Shown here piece by piece: positions 49,871 through 64,000 of a DNA stretch of 64,000 nucleotides. How positions within the stretch are numbered: position 1 is the first letter of the stretch; each line of letters opens with the position of its first letter. This stretch comes from Chiloscyllium plagiosum (Eukaryota). Position numbers and translations under genes: made by a program. The stretch covers positions 89,697,143 to 89,761,142 of the forward strand of contig NC_057712.1 in assembly GCF_004010195.1 (NCBI RefSeq), written 5' to 3'. The notes under the pieces were generated by a model. That model was not told where the DNA came from, did not search any database, and saw nothing but the letters and a program-made list of their open reading frames with translations.

Positions 49871-50149
49871 TGATGCCCACTTGCGCCTGACCAAATCTCA
49901 TTGTGTACACACTTTCTGATTCTGATCCATCTGTAGAAATATACCCCCAAAACTTGAACAAGCACAGTGTAAACAAATTTATAGTAAATGTTGGCAGTTT
50001 ACTTTTAAAGAGTACAGTAATTCTTTCCACAATCCTTGCCTGTTTTAAAAACAGTGTTTCTCCTTTCAGTCAACAACCAAAAATACAATAAAAACTGAAT
50101 TTTATTTTGCAATTGCCTCAACATTTTTACCATTGTACAATTCCATTAT

Positions 50150-50478
50150 GGGCAGCCCAGTGGGTCAGTAGTTAGCACTGTTGCCTCCTAGTACCAGGGA
50201 CCCAGGTGCGATTCCATTCTCGGATAGCTGTCTGTGTGGAGTTTGCGCATGCTCCCTGTGTCTGTGTGGATTTTCTCCAGGTGCTCCAGGTTTCCTTCTG
50301 CAGTATGAAGATGTGCAGGTTAGGTGGACTGGCCATGATAAATGCCTCGTAGTGTCCAGGGATGTGCAGGCTCGGGTTAGGATTGGGAGTGTGGGGTAAC
50401 AGAGATACGGTAGGGGTGGGAGGGTCTGAGTGGAGTGTTGTGGTGGGCTGAATGGACTGCTTCCATGTTGTAGAGATT
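50150..50478 (+). mobile_element. HE1-type SINE (diverged)
   Basis: HE1 head and core, with gattctatgattct tail. Confidence 0.85.
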
Positions 50479-52700
50479 CTATGATTCTAAAGCAAAATCT
50501 AAAACTTATTTGGAAGAATAACATAAACATTGCTATAATATAGAGTTCAAAAGATGTATATACAAAATATATACTCAATATTATTATTATACATAGTTTG
50601 AACATTTGATAAGACTTTAAGACAAATTATTTTTATGCGAAACTTACAAGCTTTAGTACCATCATGATTTATCTATTTTAGACTCATTAGATCTTTGAGG
50701 AAAACAGAAAAAAAACTGCATTGCAATGTTACAGTTTCTTTTAAAACAAACTTTAAAACAGAAAAAAATAACTGCTTTGAGAAGAAATTACTAGAGAAAC
50801 AATATTGCCAACAAAATTTAATGTCAGAGATATATCAAGCAGAACACAGAATTGGACATCTTGGAGAAAAATGTTCTTAAGATACAGAATTGCTTCAAAA
50901 CTAAATATTATATCTCAAATTTAGCAAGTGAACATACCATTGTATTCAGTAGTCTCATTGTAGGTAATGTTATGGATTGCAAATTATAAAAAGCATTGGT
51001 ATTTTTGGAGAAATTCAGCCACTTTTGCTAATTGTTTCAATTTGGGAACTAAAAAATATTCTTGCAAGACAAAGATTTAACAAAATAACTCAGCATCCAG
51101 AGAAAACCACAAATAATTTCAGAAAAAAGAACATATTTGTGGAAACTATGGATCTTTGAGATCAGAAATCTTAAGTGACAAACTTGTCACTAGAGTGATT
51201 CATGAGTCTTTGTCATATTTCTTGTCATTCTGGGAAGATTTGACTTTGGTTCAAGCTATTCAAATTTGCTGTGATAGAAATTGGAAAGACTGAAAGCAAA
51301 TCCTGAGAGGAGAAGTACAACATTTCCACAGGAGACCAACAGAATCTGACTACTTGAAAGGGTGATCAAAATACATATGTGAAAAGCCAACATAAAGACT
51401 CAGCCAAGCAGCAGGTTCAAAGATCAATGCTATGAAACAAAAAAAAAGCCTCACAAGCACAAGCAGCACCCAGTTATTGCAAAAAAAAATTGCATCTGTA
51501 GAACAGTCAGTTATTCCAGAAAGTGTGCAGAAGCTAAATATAATTTCAAAGCAGGAAAGAAGCCAAATACTTTCTCAGGCAATGAGGTTAATGCAGGAGA
51601 AAATCTTATTTAGAAATTATATCCATATAGAACAATACATCTCCACTAAAAATATATGTAAATCATTCCTAGTGGAAATTTATGATCGAACAAATTCTAA
51701 TTTGACAGAATCTGTCTATGTCAATAGATTTGCCATTAATTTTCAGTTTGTAGCAGGTGAAAGTGTCACTGAGCTATTAAATCAAATGTTATGGCTGAAG
51801 AAACAGGAGTTATAAATTATAAAAGTGAAATTATATACGGAAGAAAGTGGAACCATCTCAAGAGCAAAGGTATGCTGCACAAAAAGTATAAGCGAGTTGG
51901 AAATATTTACATAATTTGCAAAGAGCATTGTCATTTTTAAGCCTGCATGCATATATTGAACTCAACATCCTTAAAATAGCAGAAAATGCTCAATTGGTTC
52001 CAACAAAACAAATGGTCCAGGAATAAACTATTGTCCACCAACTGGTAGAGGATTTAATTGGGTTTCTTTGACTCATAGCAGAACTCAAAATGAAGAAAGA
52101 GTCTATTGAGATTATATACATTGGCAAAAGGCAATTATTTTATATTGTCAACTGGAAGGGAGTCACAGACTTCAAAAAAAATTATTTTCTATTCCTATCA
52201 TTACTAAAGATATTCAGACAATAGCAGTCAGTAAAGATTGCCTGTGAAAATTCTGCTCCTTTAACAAGGTTATTTTGCCCTTTTTTTGAGAGGGGTCATA
52301 AAGGCAAAAGTGCTGATATGTCTGAACAGGCTACTTTAATGATGGCAAACAGATACAGCCTAAGGCAACAATCAGGGAAAAAGGCTTTTAGGTTTTTTAA
52401 AAAGACACTTGTACAATGAAAGGGGAGTGGCCAGTTTTTATAGTTCAGGGATTTTTCGATTTTGGTTTAGTTTGACGCTTCTAGTCAAAGAAAGCTGTTG
52501 GGGAGAAAGCTTCCTTGATTCAACAAAGGTTTTCTGGCTGACACTCTCTCTGACATCTCTCCCATAAGAATCTGTGTTTGATTTTACCTTTTTTTGACAA
52601 GGGGGTGTTTATGGGGATGTTGCAAGAAATCAGAACAGCATCATTAGGTTGTGGTAGAGTCACTTGTGTTTTCAGATAGGTTAGATTATTCTATATTCTG

Positions 52701-53968
52701 GATTAGTGGTGCTGGAAGAGCACAGCAGTTCAGGCAGCATCCAAGGAGCAGCGAAATCGACATTTCGGGCGCCACATTGTGCTCCCGCAAGGAGGTTGAG
52801 CAATTCATCAACTTCACCGACATTTTCCACCCTGACCTTAAATTTACCTGGACCATCTCTGACACCTCCCTCCCCTTCCTGGACCTCTCCATCTCCATTA
52901 ATGACGACCAACTTGACACTGACATTTTTTACAAACCCACCGACTCCCAGAGCTACCTGGATTACACCTCTTCCTACCCTACCTCTTGCAAAAAAGCCAT
53001 CCCGTATTCCCAATTCCTCCGCCTCTGCCGTATCTGCTCCCAGGAGGACCAGTTCCACCACAGAACACACCAGATGGCCTCCTTCTTTAGAGACCGCAAT
53101 TTCCCTTCCCACGTGGTTAAAGATGCCCTCCAACACATCTCGTCTACATCCTGCACCTCCGCCCTCAGACCCNNNNNNNNNNNNNNNNNNNNNNNNNNNN
53201 NNNNNNNNNNNNNNNNNNNNNNNNNNNNNNNNNNNNNNNNNNNNNNNNNNNNNNNNNNNNNNNNNNNNNNNNNNNNNNNNNNNNNNNNNNNNNNNNNNNN
53301 NNNNNNNNNNNNNNNNNNNNNNNNNNNNNNNNNNNNNNNNNNNNNNNNNNNNNNNNNNNNNNNNNNNNNNNNNNNNNNNNNNNNNNNNNNNNNNNNNNNN
53401 NNNNNNNNNNNNNNNNNNNNNNNNNNNNNNNNNNNNNNNNNNNNNNNNNNNNNNNNNNNNNNNNNNNNNNNNNNNNNNNNNNNNNNNNNNNNNNNNNNNN
53501 NNNNNNNNNNNNNNNNNNNNNNNNNNNNNNNNNNNNNNNNNNNNNNNNNNNNNNNNNNNNNNNNNNNNNNNNNNNNNNNNNNNNNNNNNNNNNNNNNNNN
53601 NNNNNNNNNNNNNNNNNNNNNNNNNNNNNNNNNNNNNNNNNNNNNNNNNNNNNNNNNNNNNNNNNNNNNNNNNNNNNNNNNNNNNNNNNNNNNNNNNNNN
53701 NNNNNNNNNNNNNNNNNNNNNNNNNNNNNNNNNNNNNNNNNNNNNNNNNNNNNNNNNNNNNNNNNNNNNNNNNNNNNNNNNNNNNNNNNNNNNNNNNNNN
53801 NNNNNNNNNNNNNNNCACTTCAGGCTCACTGCCTTTATTCCTGATGAAGGGCCTTTGCCCGAAACATCGATTTCGCTGCTCCTTGGATGCTGCCTGAACT
53901 GCTGTGCTCTTCCAGCACCACTGATCCAGAATCTGGTCTCCAGCATCTGCAGTCATTGTTTTTACCTC
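52701..53968 (+). mobile_element. 5'-truncated Penelope-like element (probably Neptune group) with inverted 5' pLTR
   Basis: RT/thumb ORF LPFLDLSI...TDIFYKPTDSQSYLDYTSSYP..CKKAIPYSQFLRLCRICS; TSD tattctatattctg at 52687-52700 and 53969-53982; N gap 53173-53815. Confidence 0.92.
53837..53872 (+). ncRNA. Minimal hammerhead ribozyme motif in Penelope pLTR
   Basis: attc-CTGATGA-A-GGGC-cttt-GCCC-GAAA-CATC-gatt (CATC is probably CpG-decayed CGTC). Confidence 0.7.
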
Positions 53969-54049
53969 TATTCTATATTCTGTTCTCTTTTGTTCATGTT
54001 TCATTCGGTACCCTGTTAATAAATTCTAGAAACGTCATCAGAATCTTTG

Positions 54050-54602
54050 GAGATGGCTAAAATTCAATTGAAAATGAAGTAGGTTGAGTTAGAGGCAAAG
54101 AAAACAAGAAAAGAAATGAAACTGTTTGAATTATGATTAAAACAGAAGAAATCCAAAAAGACACAGAGAGAAAGAAAGAGGGAAGAGAGAGAAAGCGAGA
54201 AAGAGAGGGGAAAGGAAGAAAGAGAGGCAGTTTGAATTTCAAAAAGCACTTAGACAGAAAAGTCAGCTTAAAAGGATGGAGTGAAGGGAGAAGGTAAGCT
54301 TAGTGCAGAAGAGGGTGAGGATGAGCAAATCCATCATAACCAAAGGCCTGGTGGAGAATTGTTTAAATATATCCAAGCATTGCCTAAATTTGAGGAGAGG
54401 CTGTAGAAGCCTTTTTCATCTAATTTGAGAAGGTGGCTAAACAAATGAAGTGACCAGTGACCATGTGCATTTTGTTGATGTAAACAAAACCTGTAGTTAG
54501 AGCTAGTGAGGCATTTGCATGACTAGCAGAGAGGTATCTGGGGAATATGAGGAGGTGAAGAAAGCTATCTTAAGTGTATAAGAACTTATGCCAGAAGCCT
54601 AC
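54050..54602 (+). pseudogene. Gypsy (Gmr1-like) gag remnant
   Basis: E/R/K-rich coiled coil, then LPKFEE..VEAFF..FEKVAKQMK*P...YEEVKKAIL...LMPEAY with stops and frameshifts. Confidence 0.8.
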
Positions 54603-54604
54603 AC

Positions 54605-55082
54605 ACTACTGATTGAAACATGAACAGAATATAGAATAACTTAACCTGTCTGAAAACTCAAGTGACGCTATAACAACTTAATGATGCTGTTATGATTTCC
54701 TGCAACATCCCCATAAACACCCCATTGGCAAAAAAAATGTAAAATCAAACACAGATTTTTAAGGGAAAGATGTCAAAGAGAATGTCATCCAGAAAACCTT
54801 TGCTGAATCAGGGAACCTTTCTCCCTATTGGCTTTATTTTACCAGCAGCTTCAAAGTAAACCAAAATAGGAAAATCCCTGAAATGGGAGAACTGGCCACT
54901 CCCCTTTCATTGAGCAAATTTTTTTTTAAAAACCTAAAAGCCCTTTTCCCTGATTGTTGCCTTAGGCTGTATCTGTTGGCCATTATTAAAGTAGTCAGTT
55001 CAGACACCTAGGCACCTCTGCTTTTACAACTCCTCTCAAAAAAAGGATAAAATAACTTTGTTAAAGGAGCAGCATCATCACT
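54605..55082 (-). mobile_element. Gypsy-like LTR in inverted orientation
   Basis: Colinear reverse complement of 52243-52700 plus 53983-54005. Confidence 0.85.
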
Positions 55083-55587
55083 TTGCTGAACTAGTCAATG
55101 GGGAATTTGTACCTACTATTATCATGCAACAAGCTGCATCACATGTAAGACAGGTGCCTCTTTTTATTAAACTGTGATAGTGATTTATCCTTGACCACTA
55201 CTAATTATCTTGTAGTACAGTCACAATAGTGTTCCTACCACTGTACCAGGAGGCCTGGGTTCAAGTCCCATCTGCTCCAGAGATGTGTAATAAAATCTCT
55301 GAACAGATTGATTAGAAAATATCTGGAAAGGAGAATTGATAGCAACACTCTACCCCAAACCACAACCTACTGTTTGTTAGTACTACAATTTATGACAGAA
55401 TAGTCATCTAAGAGATGACAGAGGTTGAGCCACGGACATGGTAAAATGGAGAAAGGATCTAAGGGAGGACAAAGAATAGGTAGGAATAATGGAGGAGTAA
55501 AGTGTGAAAAATCTAGTTTCTGAGTGTGTGTTAGGGAGTTGAGCCGGGGGGTCAGTCAGTCAAGTTCAGTAGGGGGAGCACTTAAAT

Positions 55588-55703
55588 GGCTTATACCTGA
55601 AACATCGGCTCTCCTGCTCCTTGGATGCTCTCTGACCTGTTGTGCTTTTCCAGCGTCATGTTTTTCGACTCTGACCACCAGCATCTGCAGTGTTCACTTT
55701 CTC
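55588..55703 (+). mobile_element. Diverged Penelope pLTR fragment
   Basis: gaaacatcggctctcctgctccttggatgct...ccagcatctgcagt. Confidence 0.75.
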
Positions 55704-56559
55704 TCAATCACCAATGTGTGCCAACCATGAGGGGTGCTGATACATTTTGCTCCCTGACTATATTGGTCTCAACAAATAATAATAATGCACTCATGAATAA
55801 AGCGCAAGATATGAAATGAGAAACATTTTCAAGTAAAAGTTAATTCTGCAAACAGACATTCCCACCTTACTGCTTTCAATAAATCTGGGGTTAGCAGCAA
55901 TGGAGTTAGGTAGGCTTGAACTGTCCATGATGCCAAGTTCCCTGTTTGACTTGGGACTCTTTAATGGCTGCACAGGGTTGTCGCATGATCAGCTGATAGT
56001 GGGTTTCATTGCTGTAAACTTGCCCTGCTTCCTGATTGCCATAAAGTGCTGACACTTTAAATTATGTGGGAAACAGGAAAAAAACAAGTCAGTGGAAGTG
56101 CTGCACGGTTCTGGTTCTGACCTCAGGAACACTGACAAAATTCTGCCCATTATCACAAATAGTTAGTCACCTACCAAAAGGAGACCACCACTAAATACAA
56201 CATTCAGCACTGACTCACTTCAAATTTAGATGGTAGTAAACAAAGTTTATGTTGCACTCTGAATGACTATAACACTGGCAAATTTCTCAGTTACCAGGCA
56301 TTTGTTACTCGGAATTTTGAGATCAAACATTATATGTGCTCAGGGAAAAGCCAATTAAAGGTTTTTGACCTTGCTTTGCCGCTTTGAATTATATATGGCT
56401 GCTTTACCATGGTTTTTTTTCCCTTTTTTAAAAAAAGTCCACCACTTCAGTGACATTTGATGCATTTTGATGTTTGACTGCATCACCTATACCCTGATAA
56501 ATCCTCAGGGCTTAAACAACAAAGTGTCCTTTAAATGTCGGCTGTAAATCAGAATTTAG

Positions 56560-56830
56560 TAGCATCATTTCATGCCTTCCACTCCTGGTGTCTAAGTATT
56601 ATGTGCAACTCCCCTTGTATCAGCATATGAGATTAATGAGCAGACTGTGTGTGTGACAGTGGCCTCTAGGGAAAAGCTAATGGTCTGAAATTGACAGGCC
56701 CCTTTAAGAAGTATTTGTCAGCAGGTTCTTCTGATGATTCTGCTTGATTTCTGAGTAGCTGAAATAACACTGATTCACAGTATGCAATTTCATTAGAAGT
56801 TTAACACATGAAAGAGGTCAATAATGTGTA
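56560..56830. promoter_or_regulatory. Candidate conserved non-coding element
   Basis: Repeat-free with attaat, several TGACAG/TGTCA and ctaatgg motifs; conservation not tested. Confidence 0.3.
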
Positions 56831-57318
56831 AAGAAATTAAACTTATAGAAGTGTTGTGAAGTAACAGTTTGCTTTCACCAGCTTTACTTTTGGCAGGGGT
56901 GCAGAAACTAATTCTTTAGAACAGTGAAACTGAAAGTTGAGCTAAATTGGCTGATGTTAGCATACCTTCCAGAGCATTAAATTGCTTTACACTTTCCTCA
57001 CTATTTGTTTGGGGAAGAGAAATCATGTTGTGATCCGACTTCTGATCAATTGCTAGGGGGCTTTAATTCTATAGGTCACATCCTGGTGTAAAGGTTAAGA
57101 TACATGCTCCTACCCAACACCTTCTACACAAACAAGTGCAAATCACCATTTTATATTGAAGCTTGCTTATGTGATGAAAGGCCACTGAGTTGCTAATGGA
57201 CGTGAAACTGAATCCTAGTCATTGTCTTCGAGAGCAAATTAGGGAGTGAGTGTGTTGATAGGTATGGGCAAGTAGGAATCTATTTACTTATATGTAAATA
57301 AATATTTATATGTACACA

Positions 57319-57510
57319 GGTAAACTTACTCTAGTTCCACTTTCTCATTAGAGAGACGACTGATAGCAAATTTAAACTGAATGTCATCATATCTCAGGTA
57401 AGAGCAAGGTTGAGAAGATGGGACCTTCATGTTAACCTCAGCCAGTGATGAACTGAACTCATGACATTGGCTCACTTTGTATTGCAAACCAGCCATCCAA
57501 CTCACTGACC
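57319..57510 (-). mobile_element. Old tRNA-derived SINE
   Basis: Head matches 33237-33320 (+) and tail matches 9300-9395 (+). Confidence 0.55.
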
Positions 57511-59411
57511 CTGATCATTTGTACGTATATAATTTTGGAACAGATATATCATTGCTTCAGAAGGAAAATGTGAATAAAAATGAATTCAGGTTTAAAATAT
57601 GCCATAACTTTCAGGTTTGTGTTCTGGACATTCGAAACCTAATGTTATCTGCAAATTATTACATTTAAACAATGCAACTATTTTAATATTACTTTGTCAT
57701 AGGCAGCTTATACAGCCCTCAGAAATGTGTCCTTTAAGTCCCTCAACCTTGTGAATCTATAGGTGAGCAAGAGCAAAAGACAGCACTGTCTCAAGCCCTT
57801 TATGTGCTTCAAAGTTAAATGCTTTTATTTCAAGATCCTCCAGACAGAATGATTTGTGAGTGGAATGGAGTTCTGCAGCTCTCCTGTCACTGCCATTTTA
57901 TACATCAGTCAACAAAATTCACCAGCAGAAAAATAAGTTCCCTGGCTCCAGGCACCTATAACACATTGCAGCCAATTGTATTTCTTTAAGCTGCAAACTG
58001 TTTTATGTGCCAAAAAACAGACTTTGATGATTTACATTTTCAGTTGAGTTTGATCACAATACATAGGATTGAGTGCAAATTATAGGACCTTTAAAAGTAT
58101 CAGCATCAAAACTTCCAGTACCAGAGCTGCAGTGACTAATCATGCCTTCTCAGATCTGGTCCTCTAATTACAAATCCAAGATGTTCCAGTTATACATGAA
58201 ACAAGCTGAGATGCTGACATGCGCCATGGCAGTGCTTTAGTTTCCAGGTTCAGCTGGAAATGGGTATCAGACTTTTATCTTTGCTCACAGACAAAGATGC
58301 TCAAAAGTATGGACTAATAATGAGATACGAAGATAAATACCAAGGTGTTCAAAGCAATATTTTATGAATTAATGCTTGGGCCACAAATCTAAATTATTGC
58401 ACTCTCCTCAGTCCCTGACCTTTTCAATGTGGGGTAGAATGACACTGGATGGAATATAGGACGAAAAGATTGACATTTCCACTTGAAAATCTAAACACTC
58501 GATATCTAAGGACATCAATCCTGTATTATTGTATTATATGCATCATTCTGCCCTTTTAACAAGTTTAACTTCCCGGAGACCATTGCAATGGTCCAAACAG
58601 AACTGGGCTTGCAGTGGGTGAATTTCTAAGTAGATTCACACACTCGCCTGTTACAACTGCAGCAGATGAGTGGTAGAGACAATGAAAACCAACAGAAACA
58701 GTCCTAGCGCTTCATTTTTAGGGGGTTCTTCAACTCCTTAAAATGAAGGCTGCAGAGGAGATTTGGGGAAATACCCAATGGAAATTGACTCCCATGATTT
58801 TTGATCATTTAAGCCTATAATTAGCCTTAAAAACGCTCACTCTTATTTATAAATGGATATTTATCTAATCCTTTTTTAAGGAAATTAATTGAGTGAACAT
58901 TTAAAAATTCTGATAGTAGTTTTGCTTTTCCTTTTACCTTTTACATATAGAAAAGAGACAAGTCATAAGACAATGTATCATTTGCTCATTCCTTTTCTCT
59001 GTCCTTCCTTGTTTAAACAGTCTCCCCTGTAATGAAAAATGCAAATCATTTACAAATAGTGCTTTGCTTCTCCACAATTTAATCTCTTTAGGCAGATAGA
59101 GAAACAGTTGGTTATCATGACAGAGAATTGAAACTCAGTTTAGACAAATGTTGTCCACATTGCCAAAAGCTAGCCACAGATTCAAATGTAGGAAAATCTC
59201 CATCAACTTTTCTGAACTTTTCTATATAAATCTTCTGGACTAATCCAGAAAGCTGATATCAGCAAACAAGTCAAGGGGTGTTCGTTTACTTAAGGAGAAG
59301 ACAGTGGGAGTCAAACAATTAATGGAGAGTTCATTTGCCCTAAAAACAATGCAGCAGTTTTTTGGTGGAATCAAGAGAAAAACAGAATACCTAGAAGAAC
59401 AGGTGCTGCAC

Positions 59412-60995
59412 TGGAGGCTGCTAAATTAGGAAAAAGCCCATGGTATTAAAGGCAACATACTGGCATAGATGGAGGATTAACTCTCCAGCAGAAGGCAGAG
59501 ATTGGGATTAAGGATCTTTTTCAGAATGGCAACTGGTGACTAGTGGAGTTCCGCAGAGATCAGTGTTGGGATCTCAACTATTCGGGCTGAACATTAATGA
59601 TTTGGATGAAGGCACCGAGGGCATTATTGCAGATGACACATAGGTAAAGGGACAGGTAATGTTGAGGAAGCAAAGAGGCTGCAGAAGGACTTGGATGGGC
59701 TAGGAGAGTGGGCCAAAGAAGTGGCAGATGGAATACAATGTGGGAAAGTCTGAGGTTATGCACTTCGGAAAGAAGAATAGAAGCATAGACTATTTTCTTA
59801 AAGGCGAAAGACTTAGAAAGTTTGAAGCACAAAGGGGCTCTAGTTCAGGATTCTCTTAAGGTTAACATGCAAATTCTGTTTGCAGTTGGGAAGGCAAATG
59901 CTGTGATAGTATTTATTTCAAGACGGCTAGAATACAAGAGCAGAGCTGTACTACTGAAGCCATATAAGGTTCTGATCAGATTGCATTTGGAATATTGTGA
60001 GCAGTTTTAGGCTCCATATCTGAGAAAGGAGGTGCTGGGATTGGAGGCAGTCCAGAAGAAGTTTACAAGAATGATCTCAGTGATGAAGGATCACGATGAT
60101 TTAGACAAGTTCAGTGAGTGGGCAAAAACATGACAGATGCATATTTTGTGACTTGAGTGTGGAAAACAGAAAGGAAGAGTATCAGTTAAATGGTGAGACA
60201 TTGGAAAGTGTGGTTATACAAAATAATGTGACTATCCTTATACACAAGTCAGTGCAAGTAAATAGGCAGGTATAGCAGACAATTTTGGAAGGAAAATGAT
60301 ATATTGGCCTTCATTGCAAGAGGATTTGAGTTCGGAAGTAGTGTTGTCTGACTGCAAGTATACAGTGCCAGGTGAGATCATACCTGGAGTATTGTGTGTA
60401 GATTTGGTCTCACTTGCTGAGAGAGTATACTTGCCATAGAGGTTAAAAATCACACAACACCAGGTTATAGTCCAACAGGTTTAATTGGAAGCACACTGGC
60501 TTTCGGAGCGACACTCCTTCATCAGGTGATTGTCGGAGCTTCGCTCCGAAAGCTAGTGTGCTTCCAATTAAACCTGTTGGACTATAACCTGGTGTTGTGT
60601 GATTTTTAACTTTGTACACCCCAGTCCAACACCGGCATCTCCAAATCATGCCATAGAGGGACTGAGGGTGTTCACTGGACTGACCAGATTTAACAGGGCT
60701 GACCTGTGAAGAGAGATTGGTTCATCTGGGCCTGTACTCACAAGAGTTTAGAAGGATGAAAGGGACCTGTTTGAAATTGAAAGGTTAACTTATAGAATTC
60801 TCATCACAGAAGGCTGTGGAGGCCAAATTACTGAACATGTTCAAGTAAGTGATAGGCATACTTTTCACATTGAAGTCATCAAGTAATGTGGAGAGAAAGC
60901 TGAAATATGACAATGAGATAGAGGATCAGCCATGAGAATAATGAATGTTGAAGTGGGTTCAACGAGTCAAATGACCTACTCCTGCTTCTAGTTTC
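59412..60995 (+). mobile_element. CR1 LINE ORF2 remnants (two joined fragments)
   Basis: KAHGIKG...[14 protein letters not shown]...INDLD...ADDT RT motifs and 3' UTR. Confidence 0.88.
60443..60648 (+). mobile_element. Penelope-derived hairpin insertion, family B
   Basis: Long inverted arms; TSD tgccatagagg at 60432-60442 and 60649-60659; hammerhead-like core on the minus arm. Confidence 0.85.
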
Positions 60996-62196
60996 TGTAT
61001 ATGTTTGACAGGAGCTGGACAACCATGACAGTGCTGTCTCACTAATTCTCATGGCAATGCAGCAGGCTTGTTGAAGAGTTTACACAAAAAAAAAACCTGT
61101 GTCTATGCATGAAAGATAATTGTACAGGTAATGGAAGTCTTGTTTTTCCAGTTCTTTAAGTTCAGGCAGTATTTCTATGAAATGCAGTTACAAACTTGAT
61201 AAAACCATACAACTTTATCAAACTTTTGTTTTTTGGATGGATGCTGAGGAACTGCAAAGAATTACTAATGGCACATATAGGCTCCACATGACAACTTCAA
61301 AGAACAGATTGGAACTTTGATTACAGAAATGAATCATGGCATTAACAACTTCTCCCCCTGTAGCTGCATAATTTATTAAGTTTGAAACAATCTATGGGAT
61401 ACACAGTTATTTGACTACAGGTAATTGCTGGTACATTAAGGCTATAGAGGACAGCCATAGCTGCTTACTCTATTTAGTAACTAAAGAGGCTCAGAACAAT
61501 ATAATGAAGCATATACTGGCACTAGCATGCCCTCATTATAACCATCAGCATCATTCAATTTAGGTTCAGTTCTCTGAAATAATCAGGGATTGCTGCAGCC
61601 TAAAGAAACACAAAAAGAAATTCAAAATTATTGTTGCATTTTAAATAAATTTATCCTGTAAAGCATTCCGAATGTGTATCATGATGTGAAGCAAATGTTG
61701 AAGACAGGCAAAATCAAATGTCTGGAGATATGTCCTCTCAAATAGCCATTCATCAGTGATTGGCTATTTATGTATCTTATTAGAAACTATAAGATGCAGC
61801 AGTTATTTGCATATATATGCACTACCAGCCAAATAAAAAAAAATCACTCAAATTGCCCTTGGTTTTACACCAGAACTATTGAATGCCATGGAGTTTCTCA
61901 TTGACTATCTGTAGCAAAAGGACTTGCCTAGTCATTGTGCAATGTTGAGTTACATCCCAGTGCCTCACCTTTGTTACATTTTATTGAGATATTAGTGCCA
62001 TTTCATTTTTAAAAATGTGTTCATGGGCTGATGACATCGCAGGCAGGATTTAGCCCATCTCTAATTGTCCAGAGGGCAGTTTAGAGTCAATCACATTGTT
62101 ATGGGTCTGAAGGCCAGATCATGTAAGGATAGCATATTAACTCATTTAAAAATCACACAACACCAGGTTATAGTCCAACAGGTTTAATTGGAAACA

Positions 62197-62231
62197 CACT
62201 AGCTTTCGGAGTGCCGCTCCTTCATCAGGTG
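62197..62231 (-). ncRNA. Minimal hammerhead ribozyme motif (family B)
   Basis: Minus strand cac-CTGATGA-A-GGAG-cggca-CTCC-GAAA-GCTA-gtg. Confidence 0.72.
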
Positions 62232-62310
62232 GTAGCGGAGGGTTCAATCCTAACACACAGAATTTATAGCAAAAATTTACAGTGTGATGTAACTGAAATC
62301 CCTCCACTAC

Positions 62311-62345
62311 CACCTGATGAAGGAGCGACGCTCCGAAAGCTAGTG
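62311..62345 (+). ncRNA. Minimal hammerhead ribozyme motif (family B)
   Basis: cac-CTGATGA-A-GGAGC-gac-GCTCC-GAAA-GCTA-gtg; stem I cac/gtg, 5-bp stem II, palindromic AGCT. Confidence 0.8.
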
Positions 62346-63631
62346 TGTTTCCAATTAAACTATAACCTGGTGTTGTGTGATTTTTAACTTTGTACACCCC
62401 AGTCCAACACCGGCACCTCCGAATCATATTTACTCATGGCTTTATTGGATCAATGAAGGGGGCTTATCTTTATTTGGAAACAAGTTGAATGGTATCTGCA
62501 GCCTTGTGAGAGTCATTGTTCGTCAATGATGACTGCTGAGAATGTTTGTATCGTAAGTGAATACATTCAATACTCCAAAGTAATAAAGGTAACTTTTTCT
62601 GAACATATTTGACAAAGTTTATTCTGCAAGCTTTGTTCCTGTTTGGACAGTAAAATGAAAACAATTCGGTTTTTTTCAGAGTATTGAGAGGAGTGTAATA
62701 AATAGCAAAGATACTTTTCAGACTTGCGCTTAAAATGAGTTAGTAGCCTTATATTTTGAGAGTTGACATATTCTTGATTCCTAAGAACAAGGGAATAATG
62801 CCAAAGGTCATTTTGCATGCACAGTGCTTCGACTACCTTGCGTTTAGTTCAATTTTCTTCTTCATGTGTAAGCCAAAGCAAGCATGTGCTATGAGGTCAA
62901 TGAGGTCAAGATCCAATTATGAGAAGACACTTGAAGTTGGGGATAAATCAATTTGAACAGAGAAGATTAACAGAAAATGTCACTTTTTTTTAAAAAGGTC
63001 TCTTGGAAATTTTACAGTAAATAAGGGAAAGTACATAGGCAACAAAAGAGAGAATTAAACTGGAGTACAAAATGGTTTGGACAGATGTCAAAAAATTAAG
63101 CAAGAGAAAAGAAACTCTGCAAATAAAATTACCAAGACAAAATGTTTTACATACATATTAGCAACAAAAAAAAACAGAATAGGTTTCAGATTACTAAAGA
63201 ATACCAACAATAAGCTCACAGGTGATACCAATAAAATAACAAAAAATTAAATAATTGCTTTGCCTTTGTATTTACAGAACTAAAATGAAGTGCAATAAAT
63301 TAATGAAGAGAGAAAAACTTGATGTAAAGACATTTAAGATGGAACTGGTAAAGATAAATTGAGAAACAATTCAAGCAGAGAGTAAAATATTCTTATGTAG
63401 TTGGATTGCATCTGGTATACAAAAATAACTTAGTGAAGAAATAGTCGAGGGACAAATGCTAATGCATTTATTGAAAGATTCATTAAAAATGTCTATTATC
63501 AATCTATCCATGCCTCTCTAAATAACGATTAATACTGTTCCTCTGATTTTTTTCCCAATTTGTCAAACTAAAGGCCTGACTGGTCTATAGTTATTTTCTC
63601 TATCACTGTCCTCATTTTTAAACAGCCTTCC

Positions 63632-64000
63632 ATAAGACCATGAGAAATACAGACAGGAGTAGGCCATTTGGACCTTCAAGCCTACTCTGCTGTCGAATAA
63701 GATCTTGGCTGATCCATCATTCTCCATGTTAATTTTCCTGACCTTTCCCCAAAGCTCTTGATTTCCTTTACTGATCAAAGACCTATCTTTTTCTGCCTTA
63801 AATATACACAAGGATGTTGCCTCATAGTTCTCTGTAACAAGGAGCTCTAAAAACCCACAACAGAGGAAGAATTCTCCCTCATCTCAGGTCTTAAGTTGGT
63901 ACCCTTTTATTCTGAGACTATGCCCTCTGGTCCAAGACTCTCCCATGAGGTGGAACATCCTCTCAGCATTTACCCTGTCAAGATCCTTAAGACTCCTCTT
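63632..64000 (-). mobile_element. CR1 LINE 3' fragment
   Basis: cataagaccat...ggagtaggccatt tail; ORF 63563-63811 FKAEKDRSLISKG. Confidence 0.85.

Follow-up and report, generated by a model that had tools for sequence, protein, structure and literature searches.

A hammerhead-bearing fold-back in Chiloscyllium plagiosum is very probably a single head-to-head insertion of truncated Penelope-like retrotransposon ends

Endonuclease-bearing (EN+) Penelope-like elements (PLEs) are described as inserting in units in which a 5'-truncated copy lies beside an inverted 5'-truncated copy, a tail of 30-40 bp is present at one end, the target is duplicated over 8-13 bp, and the pLTR carries a TATA and an initiator-like motif (Craig et al. 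2021, PMC8557442; Arkhipova et al. 2013, PMC3846280; for the inverted copy and the one-ended tail also Schostak 2008). Metazoan PLEs contain minimal type I hammerheads with intact core boxes, an unpaired base between positions 9 and 10.1, a G10.1-C11.1 pair, a palindromic 15.2-16.2 and a short stem I, and dual minimal hammerheads 100-700 bp apart on opposite strands have been reported; no shark motif was noted among the examples considered (Cervera and De la Pena 2014, PMC4209133). In its published assays, single minimal motifs did not cleave and dimers cleaved little. For Poseidon PAc of Anolis carolinensis, both target strands are cut and extended in vitro, the template is uncleaved RNA, the hammerhead motif cut only with the element's own protein, and insertions have two end points that bound the tail (Frangieh et al. 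2024, PMC11167929). Non-LTR retrozymes are short, non-coding and PLE-related, and they carry type I hammerheads (Cervera and De la Pena 2020, PMC7229834; Li, Clavereau and Pollet 2026 preprint).

The window analyzed here is a 64,000-nucleotide stretch of C. plagiosum DNA. Self-alignment reveals a fold-back at 62146-62427, made of two inverted arms with an unpaired centre and a one-sided tail. The arms pair over 61 nt at 95% (62182-62242 with 62300-62360) and over 29 nt at 100% (62146-62174 with 62359-62387), and a deletion after 62360 leaves the right arm without 9 nt of the left. The fold-back is asymmetric, with a 57-nt unpaired centre and with 40 nt that lack a partner at the right end only. 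The flanking target is duplicated over 13 nt with one mismatch, of which 11 bp is the conservative length because the first 2-3 letters of the right copy are common to the element end. The features are as follows.

62133..62145, plus strand: left target-site duplication, 13 nt (11 nt minus the letters common to the element end), one mismatch to 62425-62437
62146..62299, minus strand: inverted arm, a tail-less pLTR end 5'-truncated 71 nt upstream of the hammerhead core, 96% to offsets 999-1152 of natural copy L027
62183..62188, minus strand: ATTAAA, likely poly(A) signal of the pLTR in the left arm, from sequence and from sister-copy reads with poly(A) 12-15 nt behind the hexamer
62197..62231, minus strand: minimal hammerhead motif of the left arm, four of five stem II pairs, predicted cut between 62200 and 62199
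62263..62268, minus strand: TATAAA, likely pLTR TATA box; its first T is 40 nt before core C3, and 39 of 45 long copies have an exact TATAAA at 36-40 nt
62299..62300, no strand: head-to-head junction of the two truncated arms, one genome match, no microhomology seen
62300..62427, plus strand: sense arm, a pLTR end that begins 14 nt before the core and extends to where the ORF start codon lies, from self-alignment and comparison with natural copies
62306, plus strand: the A eight nucleotides before the core (-8), in a TCCACW context, the family's putative transcription start, from the family-level 5'-end pile-up and extra G
62311..62345, plus strand: minimal hammerhead motif of the right arm, with stem I of 3 bp, an extra A, stem II of 5 bp and the AGCU palindrome, predicted cut after A62342
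62354..62359, plus strand: ATTAAA, likely poly(A) signal of the right arm, from sequence and from reads on sister copies
62388..62427, plus strand: 40-nt tail, on one arm only, ending at the AT of the ORF's ATG, from self-alignment, the natural copy L130 and 81 exact tail-to-ORF junctions
62425..62437, plus strand: right target-site duplication, 13 nt, one mismatch to the left copy

The focal arms are two truncated pLTR ends of the parent element, only one of them with a tail, and the flanks are duplicated. The sense arm, with the tail, reaches 14 nt upstream of the core, and the inverted arm, without it, reaches 71 nt. The arrangement is that of the EN+ PLE units in its inverted truncated copies, its one-ended tail, its short duplication and its pLTR motifs; it differs in that both copies are too short for any ORF and that the family is far more numerous. 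With a layout already described in 2013-2014 and thousands of other dead PLE ends like it, the locus is of little consequence in itself; the family is a natural experiment on the pLTR, the tail, the formation of inverted arms and the role of the hammerhead. A preliminary description of the window had proposed a 281-bp insertion with an 11-bp duplication, which is borne out by the two arms between flanks duplicated over 11-13 bp with one mismatch. It had also placed a full hammerhead core on each arm; this stands for the right arm on the plus strand, and in the left arm, on the minus strand, one stem II pair is lost.

The plus-strand motif consists of CAC (62311-62313), CUGAUGA (62314-62320), stem II GGAGC/GCUCC with loop GAC, GAAA (62335-62338), GCU, A62342 and GUG (62343-62345). 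The stem I CAC/GUG and the helix III reduced to the AGCU palindrome are as first described, and an unpaired A62321 before stem II, absent from that description, is added. The minus-strand motif has its C3 at 62228. A descriptor for the minimal hammerhead (core boxes, stem II of at least 4 bp, stem I of at least 3 bp) matches exactly these two sites in the window and none in 100 shuffles, and Rfam at gathering thresholds gives no match anywhere in the window. The motif found by the descriptor search has the core boxes, the unpaired base before stem II, the G10.1-C11.1 pair and the palindromic 15.2-16.2 of metazoan PLE hammerheads; its stem II of 5 bp and stem I of 3 bp compare with 7-8 and 4-5 bp in Schistosoma (PMC4209133). 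The proposed assignment to Penelope-type minimal hammerheads with a palindromic helix III holds, and coding Penelope copies have the terminus in common. Across 102 copies, core bases deviate from the commonest letter in 2.0% and so does the free N7 position, so that conservation within the family is uninformative on function; the 3' flank deviates in 5.8%, a figure raised by indels and by where copies end. In the parent element the motif still carries meaning: the loci also contain a second hammerhead family that differs in its letters and retains the layout (stem II GGGC/GCCC, ACGU for AGCU; 15 top-class motifs).

When the right arm is folded alone, stem II forms with a probability of 0.97 and stem I with 0.4, at 1.0 kcal/mol above the minimum, and the left arm alone forms the hammerhead poorly (probability about 0.01). 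The whole element folds into one long hairpin (-163.9 and -177 kcal/mol for the two strands; z about -20, with none of 200 shuffles equally stable). Whether the RNA is the whole element or a nascent transcript that stops right behind the motif, every hammerhead stem has a probability of 0.0, and forcing the hammerhead fold carries a predicted penalty of 54-64 kcal/mol on either strand. The ribozyme fold is lost in read-through RNA because the antisense arm is always transcribed first. These predictions make cleavage of a full read-through transcript unlikely from either strand, contrary to what had been suggested, whereas the formation of dsRNA, suggested along with it, is to be expected from a long hairpin that is stable on both strands.

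The terminus of the fold-back is shared with longer copies, in which it is preceded by a CA-rich untranslated stretch and, before that, by a frame with a GIY-YIG-type C-terminus about 480 nt upstream. A first look at the genome gave 26,598 candidates for this C-terminus, of which 150 were scored. Translations of three loci (L046-L048) contain reverse transcriptase (RT) and endonuclease pieces with what we take to be DKG, YIDD, a Cx4Cx2C linker and VY..YIG; the RT motifs and the linker were read in L046 and L048, and Cx4Cx2C, a zinc-finger-like Cys motif between RT and endonuclease (EN), in L047 and L048. In the ESM Atlas, a 422-aa piece matches at 0.96 clusters named HTH_animal/GIY-YIG/RVT_1, which carry PF26215 (31-95% of members), PF01541 and PF00078, and a Pfam search of three parent ORF pieces gave no match at E 0.001 and only a sub-threshold RVT_1 (E 0.012). 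DKG and a Cys-motif linker are described for PLEs, and the Cys linker motif is common to Neptune and Nematis (Craig 2021, PMC8557442). As far as the translations can be read, the Cys-rich RT-EN linker of the parent protein is of the Neptune/Nematis type, unlike that of PAc (PMC11167929).

At the 5' side of the ORF, one copy (L130) has the order pLTR, tail, ATG, ORF, pLTR, and the tail-to-ORF junction has 81 exact copies. In four further loci (L204, L206, L214, L218) the downstream hammerhead lies about 3.1 kb past the ATG; in these and in L130, the ORF has a pLTR with a hammerhead on either side. The right end of the focal copy breaks off at the AT of this ATG. The tail of the focal family thus ends at the ATG, whereas the PAc ORF starts inside the hammerhead and holds the tail within it (PMC11167929). 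An intact full-length ORF was found neither in six loci nor in 40 of the 81 tail-ORF copies, so the parent was pieced together by inspection from broken copies. Runs of N cover the ORF or the 3' UTR in many long copies (among them L043, L044, L045, L196, L200 and L208), so that intact parents may be hidden, for example by gaps in the assembly; the long "ORFs" in L043-L045 are such runs of N and not coding frames. A search for an autonomous Penelope sharing this terminus had been proposed, and in longer, broken copies an RT/GIY-YIG frame indeed joins it. By its translated frames, the terminus belongs to an element coding for RT plus a GIY-YIG endonuclease at the C-terminus, present only as broken copies among those read.

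If the fold-back were copied as a unit, its junction would be expected to recur. The 30-nt core pattern has 15,860 exact matches in the 3.56-Gb genome, and the focal junction has one, the focal copy itself (search for exact matches with a slack of 0-4 nt; with no mismatch allowed, decayed twins may have escaped it). The genome-wide count of copies called for in the preliminary description therefore gives a very large family with a unique focal junction. There are 2,645 head-to-head pairs with 0-30 nt between cores and 289 of the focal class, with 71-100 nt, and junction centres differ widely among the first 50 listed of each. One 15-nt centre occurs four times in the first 50 listed of the 2,645. 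A few minimal centres are repeated at unrelated sites (e.g. L083, L090 and L091), likely because ends at the start site paired with a short complement in the other arm. Among 90 hairpins, a mixed and non-random set, the tail is on one arm in 77, on neither in 10 and on both in three. The first 100 exact core matches (C1, 0.1-19.3 Mb) served as the sample for 3' and 5' ends; in it, the 3' end lies 80-93 nt beyond the first base of the core in 53 copies and 120-128 nt beyond it in 29. Two such end points bounding the tail are also seen in PAc insertions.

These observations bear on how the fold-back arose. Very probably, it is a single 5'-truncated head-to-head insertion of an EN+ Penelope-like pLTR, likely built anew and likely dead on arrival. 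The element's protein would nick both target strands 11-13 nt apart, reverse transcription would begin from two internal start points bounding the tail (the clusters of 3' ends at about 80-93 and 120-128 nt), and both cDNAs would end early, at -71 and -14, before being joined by their inner ends. The hammerheads would be passengers from the parent's pLTR, and in read-through RNA of either strand the antisense arm would come first and trap the ribozyme in dsRNA. The preliminary description had instead proposed a non-autonomous, retrozyme-like element; on such a reading, the 281-bp hairpin would be transcribed in its own right, cleaved by the hammerheads it carries and copied in one piece. Many hairpins are indeed of similar size, some very short centres are repeated, and animal retrozymes are reported as pLTR-derived (bioRxiv 10.64898/2026.07.22.740005). 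Yet the focal junction is unique, and the best-matching other hairpins resemble the full-length query at 79-86% and differ in their centres, which speaks against a non-autonomous element; the motifs lie on opposite strands rather than in tandem, and the whole RNA is predicted not to adopt the hammerhead fold. Near the cut site there are 390 junctions, of which the first 50 listed are spread over small palindromes and show no pile-up at the cut that would mark cleavage in vivo; 2,645 junctions lie just upstream of the core. Published retrozymes are head-to-tail tandems with same-strand, mostly canonical hammerheads (PMC7229834), whereas the focal element is a single inverted pair. The non-autonomous retrozyme-like reading is thus largely refuted, and we regard copying as a unit as highly improbable. 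The focal element is neither a tandem retrozyme nor a fixed non-autonomous family: a non-LTR retrozyme was rejected since there is one inverted motif per strand and no head-to-tail same-strand unit, and a MITE-like or SINE-like family is excluded by the unique junction (exact search) and the differing sister centres.

A closer competitor for the two primed cDNAs is a single cDNA (or antisense template) that snapped back and primed itself, as argued for in Arkhipova 2013 (PMC3846280). Many sister hairpins are near-perfect palindromes at the centre, and a loop variant is common to both arms in 46 of 90, against a mean of 20.5 and a maximum of 33 in shuffled pairs; a single source locus dominating at any one time would produce such concordance as well. 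In the focal copy the arms are unequal (-71 and -14, with a 57-nt unpaired centre), and two start points are needed because the tail is present on only one arm, so that self-priming appears on balance somewhat unlikely here. Co-option of the insertion as a two-way RNA switch, by cleavage or dsRNA in a host transcript, could draw on the very stable hairpin on both strands and on the occurrence of the family sequence in poly(A) RNA of a related source. Against this, the copy shows ordinary decay (a CpG-type change breaking the left stem II and the 9-nt deletion in the right arm), there are thousands of like copies, and no host gene was recognized among the nine stop-to-stop frames of at least 110 aa in 50000-64000, a search in which exons would be missed. 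We consider such a switch extremely improbable.

One poly(A) single-cell RNA run (X21; one sample of a related source whose species may differ, with reads mostly 90-95% alike) contains reads on family copies, which may derive from any copy, including copies within host transcripts. Poly(A) tails start 12-15 nt behind the ATTAAA downstream of the ribozyme (653 reads in one analysis and 938 in another), about 30 nt past the uncut cleavage site. Read depth is continuous across the cut site, 319 reads run upstream through the TATA region, and among the listed reads none has a joint at the cut site, a result limited by the library type and the related source. Read starts and ends show no pile-up in this 3'-type single-cell library. 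In a second run (X22), no reads mapped to family copies. Poly(A) addition behind ATTAAA is followed by a GU-rich stretch in two copies (L027:1612-1632 and L096:1556-1559, X21), and thousands of family copies could supply poly(A) sites to host transcripts.

In the sample of 100 copies, 45 extend past the TATAAA region and 55 are short; 35 of the 55 (35 of the 100) begin 6-9 nt before the ribozyme core, and of the eight that start exactly at -8, the next base is G in seven and A in one. The -8 A lies in a TCCACW context, and the first T of TATAAA lies 36-40 nt before the core, that is 28-32 nt before this A, in 39 of the 45 long copies. We take this spacing and the match to an initiator consensus to be signs of a promoter. 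Across the genome, 3,013 copies have a G in front of the -8 A, a position at which the template has C, and 1,325 copies have A or T there; with 35 A and 65 T in the first 100 listed, the latter contain about 460 A, so that G exceeds A about 6:1 at -9. At -10 the ratio is about 1:1 (48 G and 52 A in the first 100 of 1,365 matches listed). Long copies with a changed -9 number 177, with 14 G, 17 A and 69 T in the first 100 listed; point change thus explains about 25 G, and there is no excess of the kind that strand transfer retaining the extra G would predict. A splice acceptor was ruled out as the cause of the pile-up, because the letters in front of -8 vary from one short copy to the next. In the second hammerhead family (L095-L189 and others), copies also often begin only 3-6 nt before the core, and 37 copies viewed by eye have no clear extra G.

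The pile-up at -8 could reflect a polymerase stall or a microhomology hot spot rather than the start of a capped RNA. When 51 G-bearing arms are classified, 17 could have taken the G from the abutting antisense arm, two are point-changed long copies and 32 are neither, although in some the G may come from the target. In these arms, from L150-L189 and 10 other loci, the extra G follows T 25 times, G 17 times, A six times and C three times, hinting at further untemplated additions or pairing preferences. The RNA reads, from a 3'-type library, lack a pile-up of starts, and 26 of 40 ORF-start copies begin downstream of the core and not at -8; both observations favour a stall or hot spot. The 32 arms explained by neither the partner arm nor a point change, the excess of G at -9 with near equality at -10, the small share due to point change and the TATAAA 28-32 nt upstream argue the other way, and we judge a stall or hot spot unlikely. 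An untemplated 5' G is a known mark of mRNA-cap copying in L1 insertions (PMC9341517). The order promoter, start, ribozyme, poly(A), tail and ATG suggests a likeness to U3-R-U5, with short copies as run-off products of capped, uncut RNA. Such a layout would run from the TATA box through a start lying 8 nt ahead of the hammerhead and a poly(A) site some 30 nt beyond the cut to the tail and the ATG.

On the capped-RNA reading, the pLTR would work much like a retroviral LTR: reverse transcription would start internally, by the ATG of a capped and uncleaved mRNA, and run off at the cap with addition of a G; roughly a third to half of the genomic copies would be strong-stop products, as would many hairpin arms, and a jump of the cDNA to the RNA 3' end would perhaps give rise to the longer copies. 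We put this forward tentatively, as a proposal that falls just short of evenly balanced. If it is true, the genome records that the hammerhead had not cut the copied RNAs. The family's start-site signal allows the question of the PLE template to be tested sharply and cheaply. Should the -8/+G pile-up mark the cap, sheer copy number would provide base-level evidence on a capped, uncleaved RNA template and would predict directly what 5' end mapping and the in vitro PLE assay now available should show. A search of mostly open papers found nothing on a shark Neptune or on strong-stop or strand transfer in Penelope, and in the titles and abstract openings listed there was nothing on cap-marked PLE starts. 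The focal copy itself lies outside the run-off class because both of its arms reach beyond -8.

The window contains further insertions of both hammerhead families.

60443..60649, no strand: second fold-back of the same family with a different junction, perfect 11-bp duplication (60432-60442 and 60649-60659)
52648-54025: another fold-back insertion, with a different Penelope-like ORF fragment around an assembly gap, ending in the second hammerhead family
11665, 12299, 14065 and 42431 (minus strand) and 53841 (plus strand), first core base: five second-family hammerhead motifs of the GGGC/GCCC type with an ACGU-type palindrome and a stem I of 2 bp

Some of these five motifs are decayed. In the fold-back at 60443-60649, the right arm starts inside stem II, leaving only one whole hammerhead, and the left arm stops at the inferred start, -8, plus one extra base, so that one arm of this neighbour belongs to the run-off class.
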